Shown here piece by piece: positions 29,001 through 53,444 of a DNA stretch of 64,000 bases (position 1 is the stretch's first letter; the number at the start of each line of letters is the position of its first letter). The position numbers were made by a program, and so were the translations under genes. The notes under the pieces are model-generated. The model was given only the letters and a program-made list of their open reading frames with translations, made no database searches and was not told the origin of the DNA. Source of the DNA: a plasmid. Location of the stretch: the sequence record CP109674.1; one strand, given 5' to 3'.

Positions 29001-30167
29001 ATGGGACTGATGGAAACGCTTGACCAGTGCATTACGGCCGGTCATGAAATGACGAAAGCTATCGCGATTGCACAGTTTAACGATGATAGCCCGGAAGCCA
29101 GGAAAATTACCCGTCGCTGGCGTGTGGGTGAGGCCGCCGATCTGATTGGCGTTTCTTCTCAGGCAATCCGTGATGCAGAAAAAGCAGGACGCCTTCCCCA
29201 TCCTGATATGGAAATGCGTGGACGTGTAGAGCAGCGGGTGGGCTACACCATTGAACAAATCAACCATATGCGGGATGTATTTGGCACCCGTCTGCGCCGT
29301 CCTGATGACAGCGTTCCGCCCGTCATCGCGGTGGCAGCACATAAAGGGGGTGTCTATAAGACATCTGTATCTGTACATTTGGCACAGGACCTGGCGCTGA
29401 AAGGGCTGCGAGTACTGCTTGTCGAAGGGAACGATCCTCAAGGCACAGCCTCCATGTACCACGGCTGGGTCCCTGATTTGCATATCCATGCCGAAGACAC
29501 ACTGCTGCCTTTTTATCTTGGTGAGCGCGATGATGCAGCCTATGCCGTCAAAGCCACCTGCTGGCCGGGTCTCGACATCATACCTTCATGCCTGGCTCTG
29601 CACCGCATTGAGACAGAACTAATGGGAAGGTTTGACAACGGGAAACTGCCGACAGAACCTCATATGATGCTTCGCCTGGCCATCGAAACAGTGGCCCATG
29701 ATTATGATGTCATTGTTATCGACAGTGCACCGAACCTCGGTATTGGTACCATCAATGTCGTCTGTGCTGCAGATGTACTCATCGTGCCAACGCCAGCAGA
29801 GTTATTTGATTACACCTCTGCCCTTCAGTTTTTTGACATGCTGCGCGACCTGTTAAAAAACGTGGACCTGCAGGGTTTTGAACCTGACGTTAGAATTCTT
29901 CTGACCAAGTACAGCAATAACAATGGCTCACAGTCACCCTGGATGGAAGAACAGATCCGCGATGCCTGGGGAAGCATGGTACTGAAAAACGTTGTTCGCG
30001 AGACCGACGAAGTCGGTAAAGGTCAGATCCGTATGAGAACGGTGTTTGAGCAGGCTATCGATCAGCGCTCATCTACAGGAGCCTGGCGAAATGCGCTGTC
30101 TATCTGGGAGCCTGTCTGTAATGAAATTTTTGATCGCCTGATTAAACCTCGCTGGGAGATCAGATAA
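29001..30167 (+). CDS. sopA: Type Ia partition ATPase SopA (ParA)
   Basis: 388-aa ORF with an N-terminal HTH extension and the deviant Walker A KGGVYKTS. It is near-collinear with F SopA. Confidence 0.9.
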
Positions 30168-31132
30168 TGAAACGTGCACCAGTCATTCCAAAACATACCG
30201 TAAAAGATATCCGCCCCGAAACTGAACCTTCAGCGGCACCCGCTGCACCGATGGTTGATTCATTAATTGCACGGGTTGGAGCCATGGCCCGCGGGAATAC
30301 CATTCTGCTTCCGGTTTGTGGCCGGGAAGTGAAATTTATTCTGGAAGCGATCCCGGGCGAGAGTGTTGAGACGGCATCAAGAGTCTGGTCAGGTAATGAA
30401 CGTGACCAGGAACTACTGACCGAAGACGCGCTTGATGATCTGATTCCATCTTTTATGCTGAGTGGTCAACAGACGCCTGCGTTCGGACGAAGGGTAGAAG
30501 GTGTCATTGAAATTGCTGATGGTAGTCGCCGTCGTAAAGCCGCCATACTGACATCATCAGATTATCGTGTTCTCGTCGGGGATCTCGATGACGAACAGAT
30601 GATGGCTTTATCACGGCTGGGTAATGATTATCGTCCTGTCAGCGCTTATGAACGGGGCAACCGTTATGCACAGCGGTTGGAAAATGATTTTAACGGCAAT
30701 ATCTCTGCTCTGGCTGAAGCTGAGAATATTTCCCGTAAAATCATCACGCGTTGCATCAACACGGCCCATTTGCCAAAATCAGTGGTTGCCCTGTTTACTC
30801 ATCCTGGTGAACTTTCCGCCCGCTCTGGGGAGACGCTGTACAAAGCATTTTCGGGAAAAGAAGCTTTATTGTTGCAACGGACACAACAGCTTCATGAGCA
30901 AAAGAAAGCGGGAGTTATCTTTGAATCCGAGGAAGTTATTGGTTTACTGACGGATGTTCTGAAAGAGCCATCAGGTAAAAAAGTAAACCTTAATACCCGT
31001 CATCAATTTGTACCTGGTGCGACAGCCCTATACAAAGGCGATAAGGTGATTTTTAATCTCGATAAATCTCGTTTGCCTGCCGAGTGTATCGAGAAGATAG
31101 AAAGCATACTGCGCGACTTACAAAAAGTTTAG
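30167..31132 (+). CDS. sopB: Centromere-binding partition protein SopB (ParB)
   Basis: 321-aa ORF with ParB box motifs ([27 protein letters not shown]). It overlaps the sopA stop. Confidence 0.9.
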
Positions 31133-31354
31133 CCTGTTTAATGATACACGCGAGAGTCTTCATTAATTTCCAATATCCTTAATGCGTTACATGCTGCTTC
31201 GGAATATATACATCCGAAGCAGTTATTTTCTGCACTATAGCCCAGTGTTGTTAAAAAGATCTGTTTACTTCTCCCAACCTGATTGTTACCACAATCTAAA
31301 GATCCAGTTTTTTCTAGTTTTCCTTAACTAGTTCCGCAGTTCACCCCTCAACCT

Positions 31355-31607
31355 GCATATCAGAACTCAGACGGTAACCCATCCCGGAATACTGATTTCA
31401 TACACCAGATTAACTGGGACCACGGTCCCACTTCCTACTTGCGTGTCAGAACTCACCCGTCAAGCCCGCTTGGAATATCGATTCCACACGCCGGATTTAA
31501 CTGGGACCACGGTCCCACCTCCTACTTGCGTGTCAGAACTCATCCTTCAACCCCGCCTGGAATATCGATTCCACACGCCGGATTTAACTGGGACCATGGT
31601 CCCACTC
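31355..31607. repeat. sopC-like centromere: three direct repeats with 88-bp period, each carrying a TGGGACCACGGTCCCA SopB-box palindrome
   Basis: Palindromes at 31414..31429, 31502..31517 and 31590..31605 (the third is TGGGACCATGGTCCCA) are embedded in near-identical 88-bp units. Confidence 0.75.
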
Positions 31608-31703
31608 TATTCAGCTGTTTCTATCACAATACAGATTTTGAGATTGTTACTGTGATTCCTGTATTAGGTGCGTAAGAAGATTATGTTCGTTTTGTTCCCT
31701 GGT

Positions 31704-31762
31704 GCTTCCTCGCTCACTCGCGGGCTTCGCCCTGTCGTTCGGCTGCGGCGAGCACTACTGGC
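31704..31762. other. Candidate single-strand initiation / primosome assembly site resembling the ColE1 (pBR322) n'-pas sequence
   Basis: TTCCTCGCTCACTCGCGGGCTTCGCCCTGTCGTTCGGCTGCGGCGAGCAC matches the remembered pBR322 sequence TTCCTCGCTCACTGACTCGCTGCGCTCGGTCGTTCGGCTGCGGCGAGCGG in its conserved blocks. It contains nested inverted repeats (CTCGC...GCGAG; GGGCttcGCCC). Confidence 0.4.
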
Positions 31763-31781
31763 TCTCTCAGAAAAGCAGAAT

Positions 31782-33053
31782 TTATCTGATCCTCGCAACG
31801 GGAATATCTTTCCAGCGGGTGGTGTACGCAGGGGAGAGCATATCGCGTTTCATTTGCCATGATGGCGCTATCCCTCGCCCGGCAAACCAGATCTGTCCCA
31901 GACCGGAATGATTAATGCCATCGAGAACCTTCATCAGCTCAGAGCTGTGAGGACGTGGCGGACGTTCGTCGAACAGCTGCAGCTGCGAAACGCCGGAGCC
32001 GGTGAAGTCATTCAGCATCACACCGGCTTTGGCATACAGGTGCCCATCCTTCCAGATACGCTCCAGAGCCGTTGTGGCGGCCGCAATAATGTCCCGGGTG
32101 TCCTGAGTGGGTGTAAGCAGTTTCTCCGTGGCCACGTTGCCGTAGTAAGGCTCTTTAACGGCGAACGGAGACGTTTTGATGAAAACGGAAATATGCCGGC
32201 AGTACTGGCGCTCTTTCCGCAGCTTTTCAGAGGCCCGCTCTGCGTACTGACAGACAGCCTGGCGGAGCGAATCGTACTCCGTGATTTTCTCTCCAAAGCT
32301 GCGGCTGCAGACGATCTGCTGTTTCGTCGGTGGTGCTTCCTCAAGCGACATGCAGCTTTCCCCGTTCAGTTCGCGTACTGTTCGCTCGAGAACGACGGAG
32401 AAATTTTTGCGTATAAAGGCCGGGTTCGTCAGGGCCAGATCGAGCGCGGTCCTGATACCCAGTACATTAAGTTTGCGTGCAATACGGTTTCCCACGCCCC
32501 AGATCTCTTCGACCGGCTGCAGTGAAAGCAGTTTCCGCGTTCGCTGAGGATTTCCCCTGGTCAGGGCGAGCACACCACGAAACTGTTTCCACTCCTTTGA
32601 GGCCCACTGGGCTGATTTTGCCAGGGTTTTCGTCGGCCCGGCACCCACGCCGATGGTCAGACGGGTACAGTCATACACGTGCTGGCGCAGCTGCCGGCCG
32701 AAGTCCTCCAGGTCCATGCAGTGCTCAACGCCGGTCAGGTCGAGGAACATCTCGTCAATCGAATACTGTTCCACCCTTGGGGCCAGCTCCTCCAGGCAGC
32801 TCATCACGCGCGCTGACATCGAGGCATAAAGTTCATAGTTGCTTGAGAACGCGTATATTTTTTCCGGATACGTTTCGTTTTTCATCTGAAACCACGGCGT
32901 GCCCATTTTGATCCAGGGCTTTGCCTCGGCACTTCTTGCGATAACGCAGCCATCGTTATTACTGAGCACCACAACCGGCTTTCCTTTCAAATCCGGGCGG
33001 AAAACACGTTCGCAGCTGGCATAAAAGCTGTTCACATCGGCCAGGGCAAACAT
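31782..33053 (-). CDS. umuC: Y-family error-prone DNA polymerase V subunit (UmuC/MucB-like)
   Basis: 423-aa ORF starting [15 protein letters not shown] with the conserved IMS/Y-family polymerase N-terminus. Its start overlaps the umuD stop. Confidence 0.9.
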
Positions 33054-33484
33054 CAGTACATCTCCCTCGGGCGGTGGATGATGTGCGTGACGACGCCAAA
33101 GATATCCAGATCGTCCGGGTCGGGATAAATCGGCGGCCAGGCGGCGTTCATTGGCTGCAGCGTCAGTCGTGGCGTCAGCAGAAGCCGTTTAACCGTAAAC
33201 TCCCCCTGCACACTGGCCACAACAATATCGCCGTGCCGGGGCTTCTCTGCACTGTCCACAACCAGCAGATCGCCATTGTAAAGGCTGCCGTCGGACATAC
33301 TGTCACCGCTGGCACGGAGATAGTAAGTCGCGCTCGGGTGCCGTATGCAGTAATCATGGAGATCCAGGTCGGACTCGACATAGTCAGCGGCAGGGCTCGG
33401 AAAACCGCAGCTGGCCAGGTCTGCAAACAACGGATGGGCCTGTGGCGGGAGTGCTTTCCCGGTGCTGAAAAGCTGCAGTTTCAT
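33053..33484 (-). CDS. umuD: UmuD/MucA-like LexA-type self-cleaving peptidase
   Basis: 143-aa ORF with a Cys-Gly cleavage region (ASCGFPS) and an S24 Ser/Lys dyad (GDSM...K). Confidence 0.85.
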
Positions 33485-33506
33485 CTTTCCTCCTGACGTC
33501 TAAATA

Positions 33507-33526
33507 TACTGGATATGCATACAGTA
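33507..33526. promoter_or_regulatory. LexA (SOS) box TACTGgatatgcataCAGTA upstream of umuD
   Basis: CTG-N10-CAG with flanking TA...TA, 23 bp upstream of the umuD start codon on the minus strand. Confidence 0.7.
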
Positions 33527-33566
33527 TATTTAACAGCGTGAGGATAATCCAGATCACCTGCTTCAT

Positions 33567-33712
33567 GAACAGGGTGAGTAACCTAAGTTACTCAAAATGC
33601 TATTTAATATCATTATGGGACATTTAAATTACTCATAATGAGAAGCATGGCTTTTATTTTGCCATTTTGCTCTTATAATATGTATCAAATTGAGTTTAAT
33701 TGACGGAGCATA
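33567..33712. promoter_or_regulatory. AT-rich candidate parC centromere/promoter region upstream of parM
   Basis: Repeated TTACTCAaAATG / TTACTCAtAATG motifs and the inverted repeat GAGTAACctaaGTTACTC lie in the 145 bp preceding parM. Confidence 0.35.
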
Positions 33713-34687
33713 ATGATGAATATTTACTGCGATGATGGTTCAACTAATGTTAAGCTGGCATGGTTTGAAGGAAACGAGCTGCAGACCCGGGTTTCAGCTA
33801 ACTCCTTCCGGCATGGCTGGAAAGTGGCGGAATTCAGTGCCGCAACGTTCAACTATCAGGTGGGCACGCTGAAATACACCTGGGACAGCGTCAGCCGGGA
33901 TGCCATCCCGACAACAAACGTGGAATACCAGTACGGTGATCTCAACCTGCTGGCCGTGCATCATGCCCTGCTGAACAGCGGACTTGAGCCGCAGCCGGTG
34001 AGCCTGACCGTGACGCTGCCCCTGAGCGAGTATTATGACGGGGACTGCCAGCGGAACGAGGAGAACATCCGACGCAAACGAGAAAACCTGATGCGTGAGC
34101 TGGTTCTGAATAAGGGCAGGGCATTTACCGTAACGGACGTGAAGGTGATGCCTGAATCACTGCCGGCGGCGTTCTCCCGTCTCGCGGAGCTGAAGCCCGG
34201 ACCCGCTGAGACCACCCTGATTATCGATCTCGGCGGAACCACGCTCGATGCCGGCGTGATTGTCGGACAGTTTGATGATATCAGTGCGGTACACGGCAAT
34301 CCGTCTGTCGGCGTGTCACAGGTCACCCGCGCAGCTGCAGGCGCGCTGCGGGCTGCAGACAGCGAAACCAGCGCGCTTATTGCTGACACGGTCATCCGCA
34401 ACCGCAATGATCGTCAGTATCTGCAGCGAGTGATCAACGATGCCGGAAAAATTGACGATGTTCTGAACAAAATTACAGAGGCAATCACTTCCCTGGGCGC
34501 GCGTGTCACCAGTGAGCTGACGGTCTTCAGGAGCGTTAACCGGGTATTCCTGGTCGGGGGAGGGGCATCCCTCATTGAAGAGGCTATCCGTCAGGCCTGG
34601 CCTCTGGCTCCTGACCGTATCGAGGTTATCGGCGATCCGCAGCTGGCGCTGGCCAGAGAGATTGCCCTTTACAATAAAGAGGACTAA
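33713..34687 (+). CDS. parM: Actin-like plasmid segregation ATPase ParM/StbA
   Basis: 324-aa ORF with an N-terminus (IYCDDGSTNVKLAW) and phosphate/adenosine motifs (IIDLGGTTLD, FLVGGGA) typical of ParM/StbA. Confidence 0.85.
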   Translation: MMNIYCDDGSTNVKLAWFEGNELQTRVSANSFRHGWKVAEFSAATFNYQVGTLKYTWDSVSRDAIPTTNVEYQYGDLNLLAVHHALLNSGLEPQPVSLTVTLPLSEYYDGDCQRNEENIRRKRENLMRELVLNKGRAFTVTDVKVMPESLPAAFSRLAELKPGPAETTLIIDLGGTTLDAGVIVGQFDDISAVHGNPSVGVSQVTRAAAGALRAADSETSALIADTVIRNRNDRQYLQRVINDAGKIDDVLNKITEAITSLGARVTSELTVFRSVNRVFLVGGGASLIEEAIRQAWPLAPDRIEVIGDPQLALAREIALYNKED

Positions 34688-34689
34688 AC

Positions 34690-35352
34690 GTGCCGGACGG
34701 CCAGTATTCTTTCTATCTGCACAGCGACGATCGCACCGACATCACGGCGATGGCGACCATCAGCACCATCTCACAGCCCCTGCGCGGTGACTTCATCCGG
34801 ACCGCCGCCACCGCCGGGGCGGTGATGTACCAGACGGATGCCCGTTTACCGGCGCTGATCCCGGTGTTCTTTGACGGACATCTGAGTGCCATCCGGCTTT
34901 GTGCCGTGATGGCCCTGGTATCCGGCACCTGGTCTTCACTCTCAGGACTTCCTGATGAGCCTGATGGTGGCGTGGCTGCTCTGGCCATGTCACCGGAGAC
35001 GGAATACCAGCGCCGGCGTTACACCCTGACGCTTCAGGATGACCGGAGCAGTGAACGGGTTGAGCGTGTGCTGACGGGCGTGTCATCCCGCCTGCGCGGA
35101 GAGCTGCTGAGAAACCTGATTATCACCGGTCTGGCCCTGCATACGACTGCACCGGAGCTGCCGCGTCTGCTGGCCAGTATGCCGGTACCGCCCGGCACGG
35201 TCAGCGAGCTGCAGGTTCTGGTTCAGCAGATGGCTGGTACGGCTGACGTGAGTATGGCTGCAGTGCCGGAGAAACCAGCGGAGCCTGCCGCACCGGTATC
35301 CGCTGAAGCGACCAGCATAAAGAAAAATATGCGCCGGGCATTCGGAGACTAG
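34690..35352 (+). CDS. Putative ParR/StbB-like partner protein (220 aa)
   Basis: Starts 3 bp after the parM stop and has an Ala/Pro-rich C-terminal tail. It is longer than classical ParR, so the assignment is by position only. Confidence 0.4.
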   Translation: MPDGQYSFYLHSDDRTDITAMATISTISQPLRGDFIRTAATAGAVMYQTDARLPALIPVFFDGHLSAIRLCAVMALVSGTWSSLSGLPDEPDGGVAALAMSPETEYQRRRYTLTLQDDRSSERVERVLTGVSSRLRGELLRNLIITGLALHTTAPELPRLLASMPVPPGTVSELQVLVQQMAGTADVSMAAVPEKPAEPAAPVSAEATSIKKNMRRAFGD

Positions 35353-35355
35353 AGC

Positions 35356-35619
35356 ATGTCAGTGATTAAACAAAAAGCAGTGCAGTGCATTCATAACTTT
35401 CTGCGCGCCCGGAACGTGCCTGAATCTCAGTGGCCGGAACGGGTCAAAAAGACCGGCAGGGGAATGATACTGGCAGGCGTGGCCGTCGTGGTTCCTGGCG
35501 TTCTGGTTGATAACATCTCACTGCCGGTGACAATCGCGATGCAGGTCTGCTATGCCTCACTGATCGGCCTCGGGGTTCTCTTGGCGTTTGACAAGAAAAA
35601 ACCAGAGGGGCGGGGATGA
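35356..35619 (+). CDS. Hypothetical small membrane protein (87 aa)
   Basis: ORF with two predicted hydrophobic helices, tightly spaced after the preceding gene. Confidence 0.35.
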   Translation: MSVIKQKAVQCIHNFLRARNVPESQWPERVKKTGRGMILAGVAVVVPGVLVDNISLPVTIAMQVCYASLIGLGVLLAFDKKKPEGRG

Positions 35620-35647
35620 ATATGAACATTAACCTGAAGGAAACAGT

Positions 35648-35851
35648 ATGCTGCTTGAAGAACTGACAGGAGACGAACGTACGCTGGTCGTTGTGGCACT
35701 GCAGGCGTTGTTCCGCGAGAGATTATCCGCATCAAATGCCGTCTTTACGGTATGTAGCCTGTCCGGAAAAGAGCAGCCGCCGGAAGATATTTTTGGGCTG
35801 CGTGAAGTAGAGGATGCGCTGAGACGTATTGGTGCAGCTCCTGCGCGTTAA
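35648..35851 (+). CDS. Hypothetical protein (67 aa)
   Basis: ORF only. Confidence 0.3.
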   Translation: MLLEELTGDERTLVVVALQALFRERLSASNAVFTVCSLSGKEQPPEDIFGLREVEDALRRIGAAPAR

Positions 35852-36002
35852 ATCCGGTCCCGTACACTTCAGAAAAAAACGGCAGGGTGACATCTCATCC
35901 CTGCCGTCAAAACTAAACGCTTAATTTTTCGGCGATTATAATGTATTGTTTTGTGATGTAAATCACATTTTAATTTAATGTGAAATTTTTCCTCCGCTTT
36001 AC

Positions 36003-36207
36003 ATCTCCCGTAAAAAATTACCCGCCGTGCCTTCACGCTAACCCGGCCGCTGCGGTCGCAAGGGTTCACGTTGTCTCCGTCCTCACCCGTTCGCGCCCTG
36101 CACGGTGCATTCAGCCCGTGAAGGGCTTGCGCTGCGGCTTCGGCGTCGCCCTGGCGTCCTCCGCTTTACGCCGTGTTTTTGTGGCGGCACGGCGCAAGAG
36201 GGTGCCG
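36003..36207. repeat. GC-rich structured repeat, copy A (~190-205 bp), ending 19 bp before the ATG at 36226
   Basis: About 92% identical to copy B at 37008..37193. It contains several inverted repeats (CCGTGCC...GGCACGG; GCCTTCACG...CGTGAAGG; GCCGCTGCGG...CTGCGGC). Confidence 0.7.
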
Positions 36208-36225
36208 GATGCTGAGGACACAACC

Positions 36226-36693
36226 ATGTTCAGACTGACCTGTATTGAACTCGATAACGGCGAGTTTGCCGTCTATATCAATCACCATTACCTGGGGAGT
36301 GAAGATGCCAGCGGAGAGCGACTTTCTCTGGGGGAGGTTCTGGAGCAGCTCTCCCTGCTGCCGGGCGTGGAATTACAGACCCTGCTGGAACCCGTACCGG
36401 AGTGCGATGACTGGTGCTGGAACGACATCGCTGATCGCGTCCTGCCGTCGCGTCCTGCATGTCGTGATGATGTGACGGTGGCAGGGCTCATCGCCAGGCT
36501 GAAGCAGTACCCACCGGATGCACTGTGTATGGGGACGTTCTGGCTGGAAGATGATTTTCTGTCCCTCGATGGCAGTCTGTCGGAGGAGGAAATTGCAGAA
36601 GCCATGCGTATCTGCGACCACAGCCACGATGCAGGCATCGGTTTTAACTGGGACACGCTGCAGTTCGCTATCGACCACGTGAAGGGGCGCTAA
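36226..36693 (+). CDS. Hypothetical protein (155 aa), first gene behind repeat copy A
   Basis: The likely start is MFRLTCIELDNGEF, internal to ORF 35980..36693. No recognised family. Confidence 0.5.
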   Translation: MFRLTCIELDNGEFAVYINHHYLGSEDASGERLSLGEVLEQLSLLPGVELQTLLEPVPECDDWCWNDIADRVLPSRPACRDDVTVAGLIARLKQYPPDALCMGTFWLEDDFLSLDGSLSEEEIAEAMRICDHSHDAGIGFNWDTLQFAIDHVKGR

Positions 36694-36702
36694 AAAAAAG
36701 GA

Positions 36703-36735
36703 CACCTTCCGGGGAGGGGTGTCCTGAAATGTGTC
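36703..36735. terminator. Hairpin A8-GGACACCttccggggaggGGTGTCC (terminator-like on minus strand)
   Basis: A perfect 7-bp stem is preceded by eight A on the plus strand, which reads as hairpin plus eight U on the minus strand. A paralogous hairpin with compensatory stem changes lies at 36828..36862. Confidence 0.4.
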
Positions 36736-36827
36736 ATATTCGTTGTAAGTGAAAACCCATCAGATGTTTTCGGCACAGATAATTGCACAATCGCTGCCTT
36801 TTTTCACCTGCCATATATCCGACTCAA

Positions 36828-36862
36828 AAAAAAGACGTCTCCGGTTGGGGACGTCCTGAAAT
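36828..36862. terminator. Hairpin A8-GACGTCTCCggttGGGGACGTC (paralogue of the 36703 hairpin)
   Basis: It has the same architecture (A8, stem, loop, stem, CTGAAAT), but the stem sequence differs while staying complementary. This is covariation. Confidence 0.4.
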
Positions 36863-37007
36863 CAAAGGCACACATGTCAGATAACGGCGCGAATCCATTA
36901 TCAGTGTGCATTCTGCCATACACTCACGGACTCATCAGCTACCAGAACCGGTACCGAAGGATGTCGGTTCCCTCCGCCTTATTGCCGCCAGCCGGCGGCG
37001 TGTTCAA

Positions 37008-37193
37008 CGCCGTGCCTTCACGCTAACCCGGCCGCTGCGGTCGCAAGGGTTCACGTTGTCTCCGTCCTCACCCGTTCGCACCTTTCACGGTGCATTCAGC
37101 CCGTGAAAGGCTTGCGCTGCGGCTTGCGGCGTCGCCCCTGCGCCCTCCGCTTTTCGCCGGGTTTTTGTGGCGGCACGGCGCAAGAGGGTGCCG
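37008..37193. repeat. GC-rich structured repeat, copy B, ending 22 bp before the methyltransferase ATG at 37216
   Basis: See copy A. Identity extends from CGCCGTGCCTTCACGCTAACCCGGCCGCTGCGGTCGCAAGGGTTCACG through GTTTTTGTGGCGGCACGGCGCAAGAGGGTGCCG. Confidence 0.7.
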
Positions 37194-37215
37194 CATATCA
37201 GAGAGGAGTGTGTCT

Positions 37216-37908
37216 ATGTCCCGTTTTATTCTGGGTGACTGCGTGCAGGTGATGTCCCGTTTTCCGGCGCGTGCCGTCGATTTTATTCTTACCGACCCAC
37301 CGTACCTGGTTGGCTATAAGGACCGTACCGGCCGCACCCTGGCCGGGGACAACTCTTCCGAATGGCTCCAGCCCGCCTGTCATGAAATGTACCGCGTGCT
37401 GAAAAATGACAGCCTCATGGTGAGTTTCTATGCCTGGAACCGCGCGGATCTGTTTCTGAATGCGTGGAAAACGGCCGGTTTCAGGGTGGTTGGCCATATC
37501 GTCTTTGCCAAGAGCTACGCCTCAAAATCGACGTTCGTGGGTTACACCCATGAGAGTGCCTACCTGCTGGCAAAGGGAAGGCCGCAAACCCCGGACCGTC
37601 CCATCCCGGACGTGATCCCCTGGAAATACACGGGCAACCGACATCACCCGACGGAGAAGCCGGTGCAGAGCCTGCGGCCGCTGATTGAATCGCTCACGCG
37701 TCCGGGGGCTATTGTCCTTGACCCGTTCGCCGGCAGCGGCTCCACCTGCGTGGCCGCCGCCGAAGCCAGCCGCCGCTATATCGGGATCGAGATGCTTGAG
37801 CAGTACCACGCCGCCGGCGTTCGACGTCTGGCACAGGTTGAACGGGCAAGAAGGATGCCGGCGGCCAATGACGGCGCGTTTTACCCCGACTATCCGGAGG
37901 CGGCATGA
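37216..37908 (+). CDS. Orphan N6-adenine/N4-cytosine DNA methyltransferase (N6_N4_Mtase family)
   Basis: The likely start is MSRFILGDC, internal to ORF 37090..37908, with a GAGAGGAG ribosome-binding site. It has the motif IV DPPY (LTDPPYLVGY), an AdoMet-binding motif I (LDPFAGSGST) and a ParB-less Dam/M.EcoPI-like beta-class order. No restriction partner is adjacent. Confidence 0.85.
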   Translation: MSRFILGDCVQVMSRFPARAVDFILTDPPYLVGYKDRTGRTLAGDNSSEWLQPACHEMYRVLKNDSLMVSFYAWNRADLFLNAWKTAGFRVVGHIVFAKSYASKSTFVGYTHESAYLLAKGRPQTPDRPIPDVIPWKYTGNRHHPTEKPVQSLRPLIESLTRPGAIVLDPFAGSGSTCVAAAEASRRYIGIEMLEQYHAAGVRRLAQVERARRMPAANDGAFYPDYPEAA

Positions 37909-38126
37909 ACTACCCGGGCCTTGAAAACCTGCGCGCGGACGTGGCCGCGCTCAGCAATGCCATGTGTGACGTGCGGATGCTGCTGAACCGCCTCGAATCG
38001 CAGCACCGGCACGACGCGGCAACGCTTACCGAACGTATGGCTGCGCAGACTCTGCGCCGGATCAACACCCTGCTTCTTGAAGCCTACCGCGAAGCCCTGG
38101 TGCTGGACGAAACCTTTCAGGACTGA
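37905..38126 (+). CDS. Hypothetical protein (73 aa), translationally coupled to the methyltransferase (ATGA overlap)
   Basis: ORF only. Predicted helical. Confidence 0.4.
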   Translation: MNYPGLENLRADVAALSNAMCDVRMLLNRLESQHRHDAATLTERMAAQTLRRINTLLLEAYREALVLDETFQD

Positions 38127-38181
38127 CTGACCCTGCCGGGCTGATGCCCGGTCTGTAACCCCTTACAAGAGAGAACAAACG

Positions 38182-38559
38182 ATGTACGGAACCCGCGAAG
38201 AACTTTGTGTACAGCTTGAAAACATGTTCACGTTTGACGAACCCCTGGTCCTGCTGGTCTGGACGGAAGAGGGGATTAGCGTGGCCTGCCGTGAAGCCCA
38301 GCCAGAACCGGACGGGGCTGAAATCCGGAATCTGATGAAGGCGATCGGCGAAATGAAAATGACGCAATACCGCCAGGAGGGGGTAAATAATCTGACTGTC
38401 AGCGATCTCCTGGCCCGTCAGCGGGAAGCGGCAAACCGTCAGGTGAGTGTTCCGGCGGTACTCCTGCCCCGCGTCCTGCGTAACTATGAATGTGAGCTGG
38501 AAAACCGGATCGGTATGGCCTGGGAACCGGAATGGGGTTATCTACCATTGACTGATTAA
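38182..38559 (+). CDS. Hypothetical protein (125 aa)
   Basis: ORF only. Its 3' 160 bp overlaps the extended 3' end of the convergent SDR ORF. Confidence 0.45.
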   Translation: MYGTREELCVQLENMFTFDEPLVLLVWTEEGISVACREAQPEPDGAEIRNLMKAIGEMKMTQYRQEGVNNLTVSDLLARQREAANRQVSVPAVLLPRVLRNYECELENRIGMAWEPEWGYLPLTD

Positions 38560-39280
38560 ACGCGTTCACCATCTCGTGTTCGTTCACACCCGGATTCGCA
38601 CGTGCAGGGAGCACACTATCTACAATCACTTCAATGGAATCTGTCGCCAGTTTGTCAAAAGTTTGCTGGATAAAATCAGCTACCGGCATCGCACGGGAAT
38701 CACCGCTTTTGTAGATCAAATCGGTATCGACCCAAGGCGGTGAAATCTCGATCACATTCACACCGGCATCGCGCAGTAAAAAACGCTGCGACAGGGTATA
38801 AGAATGAATCGCTGCTTTGGTTGCTGAGTAGAGTGCATTCGTCACCAAGGGTAAAAAAGCCAGAATCGAACTGTTGTTGATCAATACCGCATCCGGTTGT
38901 TGTTTCAGGTGCTCAACAAAGGCTGAACTGACCCGAACAGTGCCCAACAGGTTCGTGTCCAGTAAGGTGGTGGCCATATCGTCATCCAGTTCGGCAGCTG
39001 GATTATCGAAGGGCATAATGCCAGCGTTATTGATCACCACATTCAGGGCCGGATAGCGGGAGAGCACCTCTTTCGCCGCCGATTTAATGCTGGATACATC
39101 GGTGACATCCAGTACCACGGAATCCATTCCCGGATTGGCGGACGTAACCGTGTCAAGAAGAGCTTTACGACGGCCTGAAATGATCACCTGATTACCCATT
39201 TGATGAAATTTTTCTGCCATCTCGCGGCCAATACCCGACGTGCCGCCAGTGATAAAAATAGTGTTGCTTGTCAGTTTCAT
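38399..39280 (-). CDS. SDR-family oxidoreductase; 3' end apparently fused to foreign sequence (abnormally long C-terminal tail)
   Basis: The start is MKLTSNTIFITGGTSGIGR (TGxxxGxG) with a YxxxK catalytic motif. After about residue 245 the reading frame continues for about 50 low-complexity codons antisense to the 125-aa ORF. Confidence 0.65.
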   Translation of the reverse strand: MKLTSNTIFITGGTSGIGREMAEKFHQMGNQVIISGRRKALLDTVTSANPGMDSVVLDVTDVSSIKSAAKEVLSRYPALNVVINNAGIMPFDNPAAELDDDMATTLLDTNLLGTVRVSSAFVEHLKQQPDAVLINNSSILAFLPLVTNALYSATKAAIHSYTLSQRFLLRDAGVNVIEISPPWVDTDLIYKSGDSRAMPVADFIQQTFDKLATDSIEVIVDSVLPARANPGVNEHEMVNAFNQSMVDNPIPVPRPYRSGFPAHIHSYAGRGAGVPPEHSPDGLPLPADGPGDR

Positions 39281-39309
39281 ACGGTTATTCCTGTTGGCTA
39301 AATACAAGG

Positions 39310-40125
39310 CTAGTGAGTAAGTCCGGCACGATAACGGCCGGCGGGTACATTGCTGGAGAGGTGCGGGATCATAGCCTGGCGACTACTTTCCATCGCCTGC
39401 CAGTAAGCTTCGTTATGCAGTGACGGGATGGTGACAAATTCCCCGTTAAGAAAACCCGTAAGCGCCGCGTCCACCAGATCGTAAGCGCTCATTACTATTG
39501 ACTTATCGAGTTGGTCAAGGGGTAAACCACCGTTATCCCAGAACGGCGTTGCTGTCGCGCCCGGCAGCACGGCCTGAAAATGGATGCCCTTTTCAGAGAG
39601 TTCATGATGCAGTGACTGAGTGAATGCCAGAACAAAGGCTTTTGTGCCGCCGTACACGCCGTTAAGCAGTTCCGGCGCAAGGCTGACAATCGATGAGATA
39701 TTGATGATGGCACCCACACCTCGCGCGACAAATCCGGGAACCACGCTGTAAGTCAGACGGGTCAGAGCAACGACATTGAGATTAATCATCGCCTGCATTT
39801 GATCGACATCGCTCGACAACAACGGCGTATGAGTTCCGACACCGGCATTGTTCACCAGGAGAGTAATGCTGGCATCGGCACGCAGTTTTTTCTCCAGAGC
39901 AGCAAGCTGTTGGGCATCACCCAGATCGGTTGCCAGCACTTCCACATTGCGGGCGGTGTCAGCAGTGATGTGACTCGCCATCTGATTTAGGCGGTTATGA
40001 TTACGGGCGATAATGGTAAGGTCGTATCCCATGCGCGCCAGTCGACTGGCGTAAACGGCACCGATGCCGGTGGATGCACCAGTGATTACGGCAGTGCCTT
40101 TACCCGGTTGTGTTGCGACACTCAT
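39310..40125 (-). CDS. SDR-family NAD(P)-dependent oxidoreductase
   Basis: 271-aa ORF with TGASTGIG, NNAG and YGGTK motifs. Confidence 0.85.
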   Translation of the reverse strand: MSVATQPGKGTAVITGASTGIGAVYASRLARMGYDLTIIARNHNRLNQMASHITADTARNVEVLATDLGDAQQLAALEKKLRADASITLLVNNAGVGTHTPLLSSDVDQMQAMINLNVVALTRLTYSVVPGFVARGVGAIINISSIVSLAPELLNGVYGGTKAFVLAFTQSLHHELSEKGIHFQAVLPGATATPFWDNGGLPLDQLDKSIVMSAYDLVDAALTGFLNGEFVTIPSLHNEAYWQAMESSRQAMIPHLSSNVPAGRYRAGLTH

Positions 40126-40488
40126 TGCAGACTCCTTTCGATCACCATTGATTCGATGAGAGAATCATAAGTGAGAAAGAAATGTCGTAAATGACAATTA
40201 TGGTAGTTATTTAGGACATTGCGTATTTCTGTTCAAGTAACGGGCAGGAGAGAAAGTAACTATCGGGCTGCGGTTTCATTTCAGACACATAAGACTACTT
40301 ACGGTGTGTAGTAATGTCCGCTCCTGGCACGGAGCGGACCAGCTAACTGAGCTGAAGGTCCGCTGTGAGCGAAAAGCGGACATCCAAGAATTGATGAAAA
40401 GTACAACATCTTCAGGTAATAAATAAATTTCGCCGAAATAATGTAATTACCGACCCGAAGGCCGGTAATTGTTAACACTGATAACCTT

Positions 40489-41475
40489 TTACCACGCGTA
40501 AGCTTCAGGTGCCTCTCCGCCTGGCCCCGGCCAGATGGTATCCAGCCTTTTGAGCGTATCGTCTGAAAGAGACAGCGTCAGGGCATTGAGATTCTGACGG
40601 AGCTGTTCAACTGTACGCGGACCACTGAGCACGGCGCTAACCACCGAGTTCTGCAGTAGCCAAGCCAGCGCGACGTCTGATGGTGTTTCCCCCAGCTCAT
40701 CACACAGTGTTTCCCAGGCCTCCAGTTGTGGCCGCAGGCGGTTGATTTGTGCCTGCAACTGCGGTGATGCCCGGCGGCCACCGGCAATTTTCTTCAGAAC
40801 ACCGCCCAGCATCCCCATCCCGACCGGGCTCCAGGGGATCAGGCCAATGCCGTAATGACGCAGCGCCGGAATGATTTCTAGCTCAATCGTGCGCTGGGTC
40901 AGATTGTACAGGCTCTGTTCCGATGCCAGCCCCAGCAGGTTGCGCGCGTCAGCCTTGCACTGTGCAGTGGCAATATCCCAGCCAGCAAAGTTACTGCTGC
41001 CAACGTAGCTGATTTTACCCTCTCGGATCAGCTGTTCCATGGCCTGCCAGATCTCCTCCCAGGGCGTGTTCCGGTCGATATGGTGCATCTGATAGAGATC
41101 GATATGGTCCGTTTTCAGCCTTTTCAGGCTGGCCTCACAGGCCCGGCGGATATGGTAGGCAGACAGGTATTTGTCGTTCGGCCCCGTGTCCATCGGCTGG
41201 TAAACTTTCGTGGCCAGCACTATCCGGTCACGCTGACCACTACGCGCCAGCCAATTACCGATGATTTCTTCGGATGTTCCGTAACCCTTTGCCATATCCG
41301 GTGACTGCGGCCCGCCATAGACGTCAGCGGTATCGAAAAAGTTGATACCTGCATCCACGGCTTCATCCATGATCCTGAAGCTGGCAGACTCATCCGTCAG
41401 CTCACCGAAATTCATGGTACCGAGACCGATGCGGCTCACCCGCAGACCGGTACGCCCCAGATGTTTGTAATTCAT
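40489..41475 (-). CDS. Aldo/keto reductase
   Basis: 328-aa ORF with an AKR fold and motifs (GLGTMNFG, D..Y..H). Confidence 0.85.
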   Translation of the reverse strand: MNYKHLGRTGLRVSRIGLGTMNFGELTDESASFRIMDEAVDAGINFFDTADVYGGPQSPDMAKGYGTSEEIIGNWLARSGQRDRIVLATKVYQPMDTGPNDKYLSAYHIRRACEASLKRLKTDHIDLYQMHHIDRNTPWEEIWQAMEQLIREGKISYVGSSNFAGWDIATAQCKADARNLLGLASEQSLYNLTQRTIELEIIPALRHYGIGLIPWSPVGMGMLGGVLKKIAGGRRASPQLQAQINRLRPQLEAWETLCDELGETPSDVALAWLLQNSVVSAVLSGPRTVEQLRQNLNALTLSLSDDTLKRLDTIWPGPGGEAPEAYAW

Positions 41476-41500
41476 GTCAAATGCTCCTTAACTGAACGTG

Positions 41501-42532
41501 TTATTGCAGATTTTTACGGAAAAAGTCTTTCAGCTTGTCAAAAGGGATGACGTCGGTACGGTCATACAGATCGACATGCCCTGCGCCCGGTACGACATAC
41601 AGTTCTTTAGGCTGACCGGCGCGTTTGAAAGCGTCCTCGCTGAACTCTTTTGAGTGAGCCTGATCGCCGGTAATAAACAGCATCGGGCGCGGCGAGATGG
41701 TTTCAATATCGTTGAACGGATAGAAGTTCATAAACTTGCCAATACTGCTCAGCATCGGTTTCGTCGTCAGTTCTTCTTTCTGACCCTGTGGGGTGTAGCC
41801 GCCGCGTTCGGTGCGGTAGAAATCAAAGAACTCGCGCTGAATATCAGGCGTTGAAGCGTCCAGTGTATTCACGGTACCGGGAATGTAGGCCGTCTCGCCT
41901 CCCTGAAACTCTGCTAAACGCTGCTCTGTGGCTGACCGGATAAAGGCCTTTCGTTGTTCCGGCGTCTGGGAATGGTTGAGGCCGTTGCGAAATGCAGCCC
42001 CCATGTCATACATGCTGACGGTGGCAATGGCTTTCATACGCGGGTCAATCTTGGCAGCACTGATAACAAAACTTCCGCTGCCGCAGATACCTAATACACC
42101 GATGCTATCCGGATCGACAAACGGCTGTGTGCTTAGATAATCAACCGCCGCGCTGAAATCATCTGTGTAGATTTCCGGTGAAATCAGGTGCCCCGGTTTG
42201 CCCTCGCTTTCTCCCCAGAAAGAGAGATCGATAGCCAGCGTGACAAACCCCTGCTCCGCCAGCTTCTGCGCATAGAGATTCGAACTCTGTTCCTTAACGG
42301 CTCCCATCGGGTGACCAACGACGATCGCCGGGTGTCGGGTATTCTGGTTCATCTTTTTCGGGATAAACAGGTTGCCGACCACGGCCATCTGATACTGGTT
42401 TTTAAAGGTGACTTTTTGCTGCGTCACCTTATCGCTTTTATAAAAATTATCGGCCCCACGGGACATATCCGCCGCAGAGGAAGCAAATGCACTGATCAAC
42501 AGCCCCAGCGCTAACGTAAATTTTTTCATGAT
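41501..42532 (-). CDS. Secreted alpha/beta-hydrolase (dienelactone hydrolase / X-Pro dipeptidyl-peptidase-like)
   Basis: The likely start is MKKFTLALGLLISAFASSAA (signal peptide), internal to the 403-aa ORF. It has a GxSxG nucleophile elbow (GICGSGS). Confidence 0.7.
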   Translation of the reverse strand: MMKKFTLALGLLISAFASSAADMSRGADNFYKSDKVTQQKVTFKNQYQMAVVGNLFIPKKMNQNTRHPAIVVGHPMGAVKEQSSNLYAQKLAEQGFVTLAIDLSFWGESEGKPGHLISPEIYTDDFSAAVDYLSTQPFVDPDSIGVLGICGSGSFVISAAKIDPRMKAIATVSMYDMGAAFRNGLNHSQTPEQRKAFIRSATEQRLAEFQGGETAYIPGTVNTLDASTPDIQREFFDFYRTERGGYTPQGQKEELTTKPMLSSIGKFMNFYPFNDIETISPRPMLFITGDQAHSKEFSEDAFKRAGQPKELYVVPGAGHVDLYDRTDVIPFDKLKDFFRKNLQ

Positions 42533-42545
42533 GGTCTCCTTATCA

Positions 42546-43592
42546 TTAAGCCAGGGTGGCGTTATCAATGACAAACCGGTAATGCACATCGCCCCTGAGC
42601 ATGCGCTCATAGGCATCGTTAATCTGGTCGGCGCGGATAAGCTCAATGTCGGCGACAATGCCGTGTTGGGCGCAGAAATCGAGCATCTCCTGCGTTTCAG
42701 GAATGCCGCCAATCATCGACCCGGCAATCGATCTGCGCTTCATGATGAGGCTGAACACTTCTGGCGAGCCATGCGGCGTGGCCGGCGCACCCACCAGGGT
42801 CATCGTGCCATCGCGTTTCAGCAGCGCAGTGAACACGTCGAGGTTATGCGGCGCAGCAACGGTGTTGAGGATAAAATCGAAGCTCTTTGCATGGGCTTCC
42901 ATTTCGCTGGCATGACGGGAGACCACCACCTCATCTGCACCAAGCGCTCTGGCGGCGTCACGTTTGGACTCAGACGTGGTAAAGGCTACGACATGCGCGC
43001 CCATGGCGTGCGCAAGCTTGATCCCCATATGCCCCAGTCCACCGATACCGACCACGCCGACCTTTTTGCCGGGGCCCGCCTGCCAGTGACGCAGCGGTGA
43101 GTACGTTGTGATCCCTGCGCACAGCAGCGGAGCCACGGCGGCTAGTTGCGCTTCTGGGTGAGTGACGCGCAGGACATAGCGCTCATGCACCACAATCTGC
43201 TGCGAATATCCGCCCAGCGTGTGGCCCGGCGCATCCGGCGTTGGGAAATTGTATGTCCCTGTCATATGGTCGCAGTAGTTCTCCAGTCCGTCGTCACAGT
43301 CACTGCAGTGCCGGCAGCTGTCGACAATGCAGCCGACCCCCACCAGGTCCCCTGCACAAAAACCGGAGACGTGATCGCCAACGGCCACGACACGACCGAC
43401 AATTTCATGTCCCGGTACGCAGGGATAGAGCGTTCCAGCCCATTCAGCGCGTACCTGGTGGATATCCGAATGGCAGACTCCGCAGTACGCGATATTAATC
43501 TGCACATCATGGGCACCGGGGGCGCGACGGGTGATATCCATCGGCTCCAGCGGCAGTGTGCCCGCATGGGCACCGTAAGCTTTAACTGTCAT
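42546..43592 (-). CDS. Zinc-dependent NAD(P)-alcohol dehydrogenase (YahK-like)
   Basis: 348-aa ORF with a GroES-like N-terminus carrying Zn ligands (CGVCHSD, C..C..C..C) and a GxGxxG Rossmann motif. Confidence 0.85.
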   Translation of the reverse strand: MTVKAYGAHAGTLPLEPMDITRRAPGAHDVQINIAYCGVCHSDIHQVRAEWAGTLYPCVPGHEIVGRVVAVGDHVSGFCAGDLVGVGCIVDSCRHCSDCDDGLENYCDHMTGTYNFPTPDAPGHTLGGYSQQIVVHERYVLRVTHPEAQLAAVAPLLCAGITTYSPLRHWQAGPGKKVGVVGIGGLGHMGIKLAHAMGAHVVAFTTSESKRDAARALGADEVVVSRHASEMEAHAKSFDFILNTVAAPHNLDVFTALLKRDGTMTLVGAPATPHGSPEVFSLIMKRRSIAGSMIGGIPETQEMLDFCAQHGIVADIELIRADQINDAYERMLRGDVHYRFVIDNATLA

Positions 43593-43608
43593 GGCATTAC
43601 TCCTGGGT

Positions 43609-44826
43609 TTATGAATGGTCTGCGGCAGAAGTGTCTGCCCGCGAGGTCAGGAAGATCAGTACGGTTGCGATAATCAGCATCGCGGCGCTGGCCAGGAAGG
43701 TGCTCTGGTAGCCGTGATGGTCGAAAAGCAGGCCGCCCAGCGTCGAACCGAGAGCAATGGACAGCTGCACCATCGCCACCATCAGTCCGCCGCCCGCTTC
43801 GGCATTCTGAGGGAAGGTACGCGGAACCCATGCCCACCATCCCACCGGTGCGGCTGTGGAAATCAGCCCCCACAGCCCAAGCAGCGCCGTCACGATGGCT
43901 ACCTGACTGCCGAAGGCAATCAGTGCCAGCGCGGTGATGGCCATCAGTACCGGGATGGCCATCAGGGTCGGGTAGAACCCGCGTTTTAACACCCGGCCAA
44001 TCAGCGTAGTGCCGATGAAACCCGCGACACCAATAACCAGCAGGACCAGTGTCACTGTTGCGTCATCCACCCGCGTCACCGTCTCAAGGAAAGGCCTGAT
44101 GTAGGTAAAGAGCGTGAATTGCCCCATAAAGAAGATCCCCACACCCAGCATGCCCAGCGTGACCACCCGGCGACGAAACAGCATGAAAACGTTGCGGGAA
44201 GCCGCCGCCTGACGGGTGACCGACATGGAAGGCAGACTGAGTAATTGCCAGACAAACGCGATGATGGCGACCGGCACCAGGCAGAAGAAGGCGCCCCGCC
44301 AGCCAACAACCGATCCGAGCCAGCTGCCCAGAGGGGCAGCCACGACGGTAGCCAGAGCATTGCCGCTGTTGAAAATAGCCAGCGCCAGCGGAACACGATG
44401 CACCGGGACCAGACGCATTGCCGTCGCGGCCGACATCGACCAGAACCCGCCGACCACAATGCCAATCAGGGCCCTGCCCGCCATATAGGTCAGGTAATTG
44501 GGTGCCATCGCAATAACAGCACCGGAAATTGCCATAATGCAGGTCAGGCCGAGCAGCAGCGTTTTCCGGTTAAGCGTGCCTGCCAGCACGGAAATAAACA
44601 GGCTGGTTACCACTGCAAATGCCCCGGAAATAGCGATGCCCTGTCCGGCCATGCCTTCGGTGACACGAAGGGTCTTCGCCATCGGTGTCAGCAGGCTGAC
44701 CGGCATGAATTCGGAGGCGATCAGGGCGAAGACGCACAGCGTCATGGCAAAGACACCACTCCAGTGCGCAGGCTGTTTCCCGCTTCCGGTGTTTTTTTTT
44801 CTGTTTTCGTCTGTCTTATTACTCAT
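43609..44826 (-). CDS. MFS transporter (12 TM)
   Basis: 405-aa hydrophobic ORF with MFS signature loops. Confidence 0.8.
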   Translation of the reverse strand: MSNKTDENRKKNTGSGKQPAHWSGVFAMTLCVFALIASEFMPVSLLTPMAKTLRVTEGMAGQGIAISGAFAVVTSLFISVLAGTLNRKTLLLGLTCIMAISGAVIAMAPNYLTYMAGRALIGIVVGGFWSMSAATAMRLVPVHRVPLALAIFNSGNALATVVAAPLGSWLGSVVGWRGAFFCLVPVAIIAFVWQLLSLPSMSVTRQAAASRNVFMLFRRRVVTLGMLGVGIFFMGQFTLFTYIRPFLETVTRVDDATVTLVLLVIGVAGFIGTTLIGRVLKRGFYPTLMAIPVLMAITALALIAFGSQVAIVTALLGLWGLISTAAPVGWWAWVPRTFPQNAEAGGGLMVAMVQLSIALGSTLGGLLFDHHGYQSTFLASAAMLIIATVLIFLTSRADTSAADHS

Positions 44827-44953
44827 TCAGGGATTTCTTTTCAGTAGATAACATGAAGTCTGTGCCCCGGAGCCTTCAGCGCTGCAGGAAGAGCTGAAAC
44901 GGCATACGGAGACGGGATAAGAGGGATAATCGCGGTACGGAAGGTGCTGCGGG

Positions 44954-45439
44954 TCAGTTGGCGACCCTGATCTGCACCGCAAGAGGTCCGTGGCGCTGCA
45001 GGACCGGCAGTCCGGAATCCACTTTCCCTAACGGGATCAGTGAACGGGCGTAAGCCCTGCCCCGGGCAAAAATCGCCAGGTTGCCCCAGGGCGCGTAGTA
45101 AGTGATATCTCCGGCTTCCGGCGTCATGCCGTCCGGTGCCTGCACCGTGGAAAGCCTGCGCGGCAGGTCGCTTATACGCTCAATATCGTCATAGTCTTCC
45201 AGCGTCAGGCTGAGGGGAAGCAAAGACGCAAAGTCCCGGCCTGTCGGCGTATCAAAGAGGGTGGCGGTGGCGGTTTCTCCCTCCACAATGATCTCAATTT
45301 TCATAAGCGTCTCCTGCGCCACTCCCCGGTCGTTGTCACCCGCCATAGCGGACTGCGTGACGAAAAGCAGGCCGGCAAGGAGCAGCAGTGATGTTCTGCG
45401 GTAAGCGTTTTGCATAAGGGTTAGCGTTGACTTTTTCAT
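44954..45439 (-). CDS. Secreted hypothetical protein (161 aa), divergently adjacent to lysR
   Basis: ORF with a signal peptide. No confident family. Confidence 0.45.
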   Translation of the reverse strand: MKKSTLTLMQNAYRRTSLLLLAGLLFVTQSAMAGDNDRGVAQETLMKIEIIVEGETATATLFDTPTGRDFASLLPLSLTLEDYDDIERISDLPRRLSTVQAPDGMTPEAGDITYYAPWGNLAIFARGRAYARSLIPLGKVDSGLPVLQRHGPLAVQIRVAN

Positions 45440-45531
45440 CGCATTATTGTTACCAATATGCAGCGGGTTAACTAGCTAATGAATACTTAATACCCTTATA
45501 AGTAAAATTTATAAATGGACCGGAAACGAGC

Positions 45532-46431: not shown

Positions 46432-46605
46432 CGCTGAATTATCGGGCCAATATTTCAAGAACGGACGTGAACGTCCGCTTTTGGCACTAAGCGGACTGTG
46501 ATCACACTTCTGACGTCTCGTTTTCTGACTTCCTTCGTGGCTTGCCCTAAGCATGTTGTAGTGCGATACTTGTAATGACATTTGTATTTACAAGAGGTGT
46601 GAGAC

Positions 46606-47132: not shown

Positions 47133-47203
47133 AATAAAGCAGGACATCTCTGTTTCGCAGTAAAGGTGCCATTTCTGCTTTGCGTTGACAGGAGAAGAAG
47201 GCC
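47090..47203 (-). ncRNA. sok: Expected position of Sok antisense RNA / mok leader of the hok locus (not resolved at base level)
   Basis: Inferred from the canonical hok/sok architecture, in which the antisense RNA lies opposite the mRNA leader just upstream of hok. Promoter elements were not individually identified. Confidence 0.25.
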
Positions 47204-48694: not shown

Positions 48695-48722
48695 TCTCCC
48701 TTTTAACCATGAGACTCAGACG

Positions 48723-53379: not shown

Positions 53380-53444
53380 TTTTAACATTCCGTCCTGATA
53401 AGTTGGTCGGATAAGGCGCTCGCGCCGTATCCGACATTAATTTC

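Follow-up and report, generated by a model that had tools for sequence, protein, structure and literature searches.

Two GC-rich repeats in a plasmid leading region as probable short forms of the class 2/ssp2 single-stranded DNA promoters

Why should two unrelated genes of one plasmid each be preceded, almost at the start codon, by the same GC-rich palindromic sequence? The question is raised by a plasmid stretch of 64,000 nucleotides (record CP109674.1; "the window" below, with positions counted from its first letter), in which one copy of a repeat (copy A) lies before the gene of an acidic 155-amino-acid protein and another (copy B) before an orphan DNA methyltransferase gene. A sequence-only reading had taken both copies for single-stranded DNA (ssDNA) promoters of the Frpo type, that is, hairpins on the strand transferred in conjugation that serve the early genes of a leading region. 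The core of this idea holds up well, on homology to elements tested by 5'-RACE and deletion, a covarying hairpin, hexamers at a fixed place and synteny, and we think it probable that each repeat is an ssDNA promoter. The family is another one: the repeats have no homology to Frpo/ssiD and belong, by sequence, to a short form of the class 2/ssp2 elements. From this evidence we infer which strand is transferred, where transcription would start, and that the short form would be active.

The repeats themselves are real. They had been described as two GC-rich sequences of about 190 bp and about 92% identity, and BLASTN of copy A against the window aligns 36023-36210 with 37008-37196 at 94.2% identity over 189 columns (E 2.5e-80); a repeat search divides the pair at a 1-nt indel into blocks of 118 nt at 97% and 70 nt at 91%, and neither BLASTN nor the family profile described below finds a third copy in the window. 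Copy A had been started at 36003, which is 20 nt too early because 36003-36022 is not repeated. The copies are rich in GC, 68% in A and 67% in B, compared with 52% in the whole window and 35-50% in the flanks. Each carries a 25-nt terminal inverted repeat (76-80% complementary) in addition to the short palindromes already quoted for it, so that the internal palindromy first noticed is confirmed. The start codons at 36226 (after A) and 37216 (after B) follow the end of the repeat by 15 nt and 19 nt; the short gap had been seen correctly, the figures given for it (19-22 bp) had not, the ends then used giving 18 and 22 nt. Neither the flanks nor the downstream genes of A show any relation to those of B, so the duplication is confined to the element. 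We also considered that the repeats might encode N-terminal extensions of the downstream proteins (open reading frames (ORFs) 35980-36693 and 37090-37908), and rejected this on the unrelated genes that follow, the 1-nt indel between A and B, and the Shine-Dalgarno sequence and ATG that stand after the element.

To which family do they belong? Six ssDNA promoters have been identified in pESBL by donor elimination, RNA-seq and 5'-RACE, and divided into class 1 (ssi1-3 and Frpo), class 2 (5' of klcA and of ardA) and class 3 (5' of M.EcoGIX) (Wen et al., NAR 2025, PMC12672017); the counterparts in F have been named ssp1a/b, ssp2 and ssp3 (Fraikin et al., bioRxiv 10.64898/2026.01.09.698686). For the class 2/ssp2 sites both transcription starts by 5'-RACE and deletion phenotypes exist (PMC12672017; bioRxiv 10.64898/2026.01.09.698686). 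A profile hidden Markov model (HMM) built from three Enterobacter copies finds, over their whole length, the klcA site of pESBL (locus L008, 7105-7328, E 1.3e-5), the site of the ArdB gene of F, which is ssp2 (locus L002, 6489-6712, E 1.5e-5), and, in two pieces with E 2e-3 and 3e-3, the ardA site of pESBL (L008 14052-14275). With nine seeds, none from E. coli, the klcA site is matched end to end at E 1e-13, the ardA pieces at about 1e-7 each and the ssp2 pieces at 8e-8 and 1e-5. The likeness to class 2/ssp2 extends over both arms (about 80 nt and about 70 nt, 72-80% identity) and includes the same three long-range helices, the same TTG...-N15-TA...T signal with a bubble at -11 to -9, the invariant motifs AAGCCGCA and G(A/C)CGGGTGAGGA, and the same position and orientation before anti-restriction genes of the leading region. 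The window copies differ in being shorter (about 175 nt against about 230 nt, the apical 60-70 nt being absent) and less stable (-46/-55 against -69/-74 kcal/mol), and in preceding a methyltransferase operon and a gene without assigned function, whereas class 2 precedes klcA and ardA. As judged by homology, then, the window repeats are relatives of class 2/ssp2, in a short form, and are unrelated to class 1 and class 3. The element is 36023..36194 for copy A (repeated span to 36210; HMM E 4.9e-42) and 37007..37180 for copy B (repeated span to 37196; HMM E 1.9e-45), both on the minus strand, which we take as the transferred strand (T strand).

This short form had been met before in another guise. 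In Supplementary Table 2 of Samuel et al. (Nature 2024) two candidates of low certainty, from an island in an insect-gut metagenome, are matched by both copies on the minus strand: "Frpo* 1" over about 180 nt at 75-77% identity (E 1e-26 to 1e-30), and "Frpo* 3" over 128-148 nt at 73-75% (E about 1e-12). These have the same short form, and "Frpo* 3" aligns over its full length in the MAFFT alignment of the family, but the 2024 description gives them only a distant similarity to Frpo and divergent -35/-10 sequences, with no link to class 2. A blastn search of a plasmid collection finds relatives in 4158 records, mostly of Klebsiella, Enterobacter, Citrobacter, Serratia, Yersinia, Escherichia, Salmonella and Pantoea. 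In 12 loci the family HMM gives 36 matches, which correspond to about 30 copies (the long ones give two matches each), with 1-5 copies per leading region; all 36 matches are co-oriented with the leading-region genes, on their coding strand, and wherever the downstream gene is annotated the element directly precedes it, be it a methyltransferase, ArdA, KlcA/ArdB, DUF1281, ParB-like or unknown gene. Comparison with a diverged Leclercia-type contig shows an element more conserved than the genes it precedes: copy A is 81% identical there, its gene 68.5% and the upstream flank about 60%, and for copy B the values are 90%, 83.5% for the methyltransferase gene and 56% for the flank. The element also precedes homologues of the 155-amino-acid protein that are only 57-62% identical. 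Since A and B are 94% alike in the window and 83% alike in the Leclercia-type contig, a recent homogenisation is suggested.

The two other classes are alike in kind only. Class 1 elements (Frpo/ssiD of F, ssi1-3 of ColIb-P9; Masai & Arai 1997; Bates 1999; Couturier 2023) are also T-strand hairpins that rebuild a sigma-70 promoter, in the same genomic niche, but they are about 330 nt long, with an apical stem rich in A/T and a far stronger fold, and the alignment to F Frpo/ssi sequences suggested at the outset gives, for either copy, no BLASTN match at E < 1e-3 against F ssiD/ssiE or ColIb-P9 ssi1-3. The only class-1-like match in the window is elsewhere, at 47856-48230. There, 47850-48240 on the minus strand is a third ssDNA-promoter-like element, a long hairpin of class 1 type (-90.3 kcal/mol, z -4.13), 79% identical to "Frpo* 5" (Samuel 2024) and with a 34-nt core match to F ssiD; relBE/hok precede it, and an unannotated ORF (about 48233-48694) follows. 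As to class 3/ssp3, it lies directly 5' of the orthologous methyltransferase gene in pESBL, F and pKpQIL, as copy B does here, but it is a hairpin of about 340 nt (-96 kcal/mol) unrelated in sequence to the window copies. An assignment of the repeats to class 3, for which the place of copy B before the methyltransferase and an HMM match upstream of the M.EcoGIX operon could be invoked, was dropped: in a sliding fold scan the hairpin of class 3 falls directly 5' of the methyltransferase (pESBL, L008 4400-4799), and by BLAST the pESBL (4400-4783) and F (3790-4167) hairpins match only each other and pKpQIL, with no copy in the window. In Yersinia pestis pMT1, Pantoea and Enterobacter it is a class-2-type element that stands before the methyltransferase gene, whereas F, pESBL and pKpQIL have class 3 there (methyltransferase-upstream loci: L004 4002-4234 for pMT1, L003 5999-6171 for Pantoea, L006 3153-3371 for pKpQIL); different promoter classes before orthologous genes point to a modular swapping of promoters.

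Is the hairpin itself conserved? In 14 short forms aligned on the minus strand there are 34 consensus pairs, 17 of them with compensatory double changes. When the arms of 24 distinct copies are joined (both short and long forms, of seven genera and of metagenomes), the result is 36 pairs in 7 helices, 20 with compensatory changes; 95.4% of the cells are paired, against 31-39% when the partners are slid by 1-3 columns, and the covariation score of 0.337 (against at most 0.067) is reached by 0/500 shuffles. Folded as DNA with its exact boundaries, copy B gives -55 kcal/mol (z -4.69, 0/200 shuffles), with outer helix probabilities of 0.94 (H1) and 0.95 (H2); those of copy A are 0.88 and 0.52, and F ssp2 gives -73.8 kcal/mol (z -8.47). 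The choice of boundaries matters, loose ones giving unimpressive z values (-1.58 and -0.35). We also repeated the screen of Wen 2025 (300-nt windows, DNA energy parameters, threshold -75 kcal/mol, T strand), which returned exactly the six published regions in pESBL and, in F, the four published places plus one borderline region (-75.5 kcal/mol) inside a parB-like gene. In such a 300-nt scan copy B reaches -77.5 kcal/mol and copy A only about -62 (criterion < -75). The folding proposed as a check has a divided outcome: copy B is a stable hairpin with hexamers on the inferred T strand, but copy A is a weak folder, and the two strands are not separable thermodynamically.

The promoter signal has a strand, whatever the folding. 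Of 26 copies, 22 have TTGNNN-N15-TANNNT at a fixed place on the 3' arm of the T strand and none (0/26) has it on the other strand; by chance the signal would occur at a frequency of 0.7% per element. The TTG, inside helix 4, is invariant in 24/24 aligned copies, and the TA...T positions of the -10-like hexamer are kept in 21-23/24. In copy A the -35-like TTGCGA is at 36056..36061 (minus), on the non-template 3' arm inside helix 4, and the -10-like TAGCGT at 36035..36040 (minus), its -12 T paired and its AGC (-11 to -9) in a 3-nt mismatch bubble; in copy B the same hexamers are at 37041..37046 and 37020..37025 (both minus), with -11 to -9 again unpaired. Across the family the second hexamer begins with a paired T, followed by three bases that always oppose a 3-nt mismatch, after which the last helix starts. 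An invariant A follows 7 nt past the -10 hexamer, and its partner on the 5' (template) arm defines predicted starts, on the plus strand, at 36189 (copy A) and 37175 (copy B); the predicted leaders to the ATG (37 nt and 41 nt) contain Shine-Dalgarno sequences. No sigma-70-like promoter in double-stranded DNA was found on the coding (plus) strand upstream of either gene. Extra bulged bases of the template arm in the spacer may adjust the promoter geometry.

Other parts of the element are invariant too. In all members the mostly unpaired minus-strand motifs AAGCCGCA, G(A/C)CGGGTGAGGA and GAAAAGCGGAG (alignment columns 32-41, 63-70 and 75-88) are unchanged; in copy A the sites are at about 36154-36164 (GAAAAGCGGAG), 36128-36135 (AAGCCGCA) and 36076-36089 (GAACGGGTGAGGA), with matching places in copy B. 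AAGCCGCA and GAACGGGTGAGGA are common to short and long forms, and none of the motifs is explained by pairing or by the -35/-10 hexamers. These unpaired motifs may be a putative site of protein contact.

A promoter of this kind would work as follows. In conjugation the minus strand of the window, the template of these genes, would enter the recipient alone, and the 170-nt element would fold back on itself, three long-range helices rebuilding a duplex that would bear, on its 3' arm, TTGCGA as -35-like hexamer, a 15-nt spacer and TAGCGT as -10-like hexamer. With the -12 T paired and -11 to -9 open in the mismatch bubble, this duplex would resemble a pre-melted promoter, at which the host's sigma-70 RNA polymerase would begin transcription from the invariant A (36189 in A, 37175 in B) and proceed down the 5' arm into the gene. 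The acidic 155-amino-acid protein and the operon of the M.EcoGIX-like methyltransferase could in this way be made before the complementary strand exists, and second-strand synthesis would then remove the hairpin and turn the promoter off.

Several observations weigh against so active a role. The experimentally validated members of the family are long forms, with an extra apical domain of 60-70 nt. The fold of copy A is marginal (-46 kcal/mol, z -1.71 with exact boundaries), a C-to-A change in it breaking one pair and permitting a competing local hairpin, and the helix that holds the -35 hexamer (H4) has a low probability in both copies (0.22 in A, 0.31 in B). Minus and plus strands fold equally well (z -5.24 for plus), so that the assignment of the strand rests on synteny and on the orientation of the hexamers. 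The hexamers are themselves weak (TTGCGA 4/6, TAGCGT 3/6) and their spacer, of 15 nt, is short. The short copies that pESBL and F carry do not figure among the six and four promoters reported there, and not all leading genes are induced (PMC12672017); these copies reach -69 and -70 kcal/mol and miss the threshold of -75 in the repeated screen, so they would not have been called by that criterion. Finally, pZHH-2 and pWW19C-IncFIB, which are 100% identical here, are typed as non-mobilizable, and oriT or tra genes were not found within the window.

The short copies just mentioned bear on a further idea, which we put forward with reserve and think rather doubtful at present: that the short form is a distinct, active and unrecognised subclass of ssDNA promoter, class 2 being this short core with an added apical module. 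With the HMM from Enterobacter copies alone, pESBL and F each show a short copy upstream of DUF1281 (E 1e-6). It lies at L008 3279-3438 in pESBL (NC_018659.1, about 53278-53437; predicted start 53433) and at L002 2664-2822 in F (NC_002483.1, about 52663-52821; predicted start 52817), where DUF1281 is frameshifted. If the idea were true, the short form upstream of DUF1281 would fire and F and pESBL would have one early operon beyond those reported; the invariant unpaired AAGCCGCA and GAACGGGTGAGGA would be a recognition site for a protein, and this protein might cause the UvrD-resolved stall at ssp2.

Do the elements still work in this plasmid? The alternative that keeps most weight, a serious one although we put it below an even chance, is that they are evolutionary remnants, idle in this replicon, the plasmid being no longer transferred and the hairpins never formed. 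The surroundings are those of a leading region, as had been proposed for an IncF type. The placement just downstream of parMR and umuDC is as stated: the order is sopAB, umuDC (minus), parM/stbB, two small ORFs, copy A, the 155-amino-acid gene, copy B, methyltransferase, a 73-amino-acid ORF and DUF1380, an arrangement shared with F, pKpQIL and pESBL, in whose leading regions these genes face oriT. The region is 100% identical to Enterobacter IncFIB/IncFII plasmids such as pZHH-2 (identical across the repeats) and pWW19C-IncFIB (identical across 36000-50000), and it is their non-mobilizable type that makes an idle state plausible, the plasmid of the window looking non-mobilizable as well. The leading region is moreover broken inside the DUF1380 gene, at about 38530, by some 9.2 kb of metabolic cargo, and resumes at 47753. 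This cargo (38530-47753) comprises two short-chain dehydrogenases, an aldo/keto reductase, a hydrolase, a Zn-alcohol dehydrogenase, an MFS transporter, a cyclophilin-like protein and a LysR regulator; in pZHH-2 the site of the interruption still holds an antirestriction gene with a third copy of the element before it (L001 22851-23490), both of which are missing here. The destabilising change in copy A also fits with decay. On the other side, copy B is intact and folds well, 136 of the 255 plasmids that match 35900-37300 (megablast, at least 80% identity) are typed as conjugative, and mobilisation in trans could still occur via an oriT outside the window. The early-expression establishment cassette of the sequence-only reading is therefore kept as to its kind, hairpin promoters; in this replicon the cut at about 38530, the window free of oriT and tra genes and the non-mobilizable typing of identical plasmids make the module probably a vestigial relic of a conjugative ancestor.

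A second alternative, which we consider unlikely, gives the elements a main role in DNA synthesis, by stalling or priming as for ssp2 and Frpo, rather than in transcription. It draws on ssp2 of F, homologous to the window copies in both arms, which drives the ArdB gene (yfgB/ArdB) and stalls complementary-strand synthesis at the end of the stem until UvrD acts (bioRxiv 10.64898/2026.01.09.698686), and on the invariance of AAGCCGCA and GAACGGGTGAGGA in short and long forms alike, beyond what pairing or hexamers require. The roadblock has, however, been demonstrated for the long form only, and the very stable ssp3 hairpin is without roadblock activity, which means that a roadblock is not predictable from folding. 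Such a role would leave unexplained the fixed TTG/TA...T signal and the placement right before start codons; it is also compatible with a promoter function and does not exclude it.

Could the conserved fold instead be that of an RNA, a structured 5' leader on the plus strand transcribed from a conventional promoter upstream? The plus strand folds as well as the minus (z -5.24) and Watson-Crick covariation is blind to the strand, and yet we regard this as very improbable. No Rfam 15 match covers the repeats at E up to 1 (30000-50000 scanned), no sigma-70-like promoter stands upstream on the plus strand, and the promoter-like hexamers are on the minus strand only. On the minus strand G.T cells (32) outnumber A.C cells (9), which in a plus-strand RNA would amount to 32 A.C mismatches; as a single column supplies 18 of these 32, the test is a weak one. 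The mapped transcript starts of the homologues, moreover, are reported to fit the hairpin-promoter prediction (PMC12672017). As for a MITE-like mobile element, or the tandem segmental duplication of an ordinary promoter that had been kept as a fallback, we can hardly give it any credit: the 25-nt terminal inverted repeat, the several copies per plasmid and the 94% identity of A and B would suit it, but no flanking direct duplication is seen, 36/36 copies stand right before a gene of the leading region and all in one orientation, A and B have nothing in common in their flanks or downstream genes, and the same element stands before orthologous genes diverged to 57-62% protein identity. What is observed is a dispersed cis-element found in thousands of plasmids.

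The genes that an ssDNA promoter at these two places would serve are of unequal clarity. The gene after copy B (37216..37908, plus) is, as first proposed, an orphan N6/N4 methyltransferase (Pfam N6_N4_Mtase, E 1.7e-37), 69% identical to M.EcoGIX of pESBL (BLASTP E 6e-125), an enzyme specific for single-stranded DNA that protects pESBL on entry (PMC7736820). The rest of this operon (37905..38559, plus) consists of the 73-amino-acid ORF, whose homologue in locus L014 matches YubE, and the DUF1380 gene, the 3' end of which differs from that in the relative because the identity with pZHH-2 stops inside this gene at about 38530. The gene after copy A (36226..36693, plus) has no assigned function. 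Its 155-amino-acid product is strongly acidic (pI 4.24, 30 D+E against 10 K+R), and the family to which it belongs is narrow and restricted to a few enterobacterial genera (63 clusters, in Enterobacter, Citrobacter, Leclercia and Scandinavium); it has no Pfam match and no match to a PDB fold at E <= 0.001, and its AF2 model is of low confidence (pLDDT 66). The charge would fit a DNA-mimic anti-restriction or establishment protein, which we mention only as a lead.

Three other features of the vicinity may be recorded. A site on the minus strand at 35935-35962, within the A/T-rich sequence immediately upstream of copy A, resembles a sigma-70 promoter of almost consensus form (TTTACA-16-TATAAT, 11/12) and faces away from the leading genes. 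Between the 155-amino-acid gene and copy B, two hairpins that resemble each other follow A-runs (36693-36730 and 36828-36862) and are terminator-like on the minus strand; the second has a weak, sub-threshold Rfam match to a small RNA model (E 0.82).

What does this locus add? The type of element was already published in 2024-2026 and the concept of the ssDNA promoter is itself unchanged; what is described here is a compact variant and further members of that promoter family. Such promoters decide which genes a conjugative plasmid expresses in its first minutes in a new host, and these early genes, mostly anti-restriction and anti-SOS functions, help resistance plasmids to cross the barriers between strains. 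The acidic 155-amino-acid protein can now be flagged as a candidate early establishment factor. Promoter types appear to have been exchanged between orthologues, the methyltransferase being found with class 3 in F and pESBL and with the short, class-2-type form here. The locus shows, finally, that the class 2 family has a compact form of 175 nt and extends into thousands of plasmids (the 4158 records) of Klebsiella, Enterobacter, Serratia, Yersinia and Pantoea.

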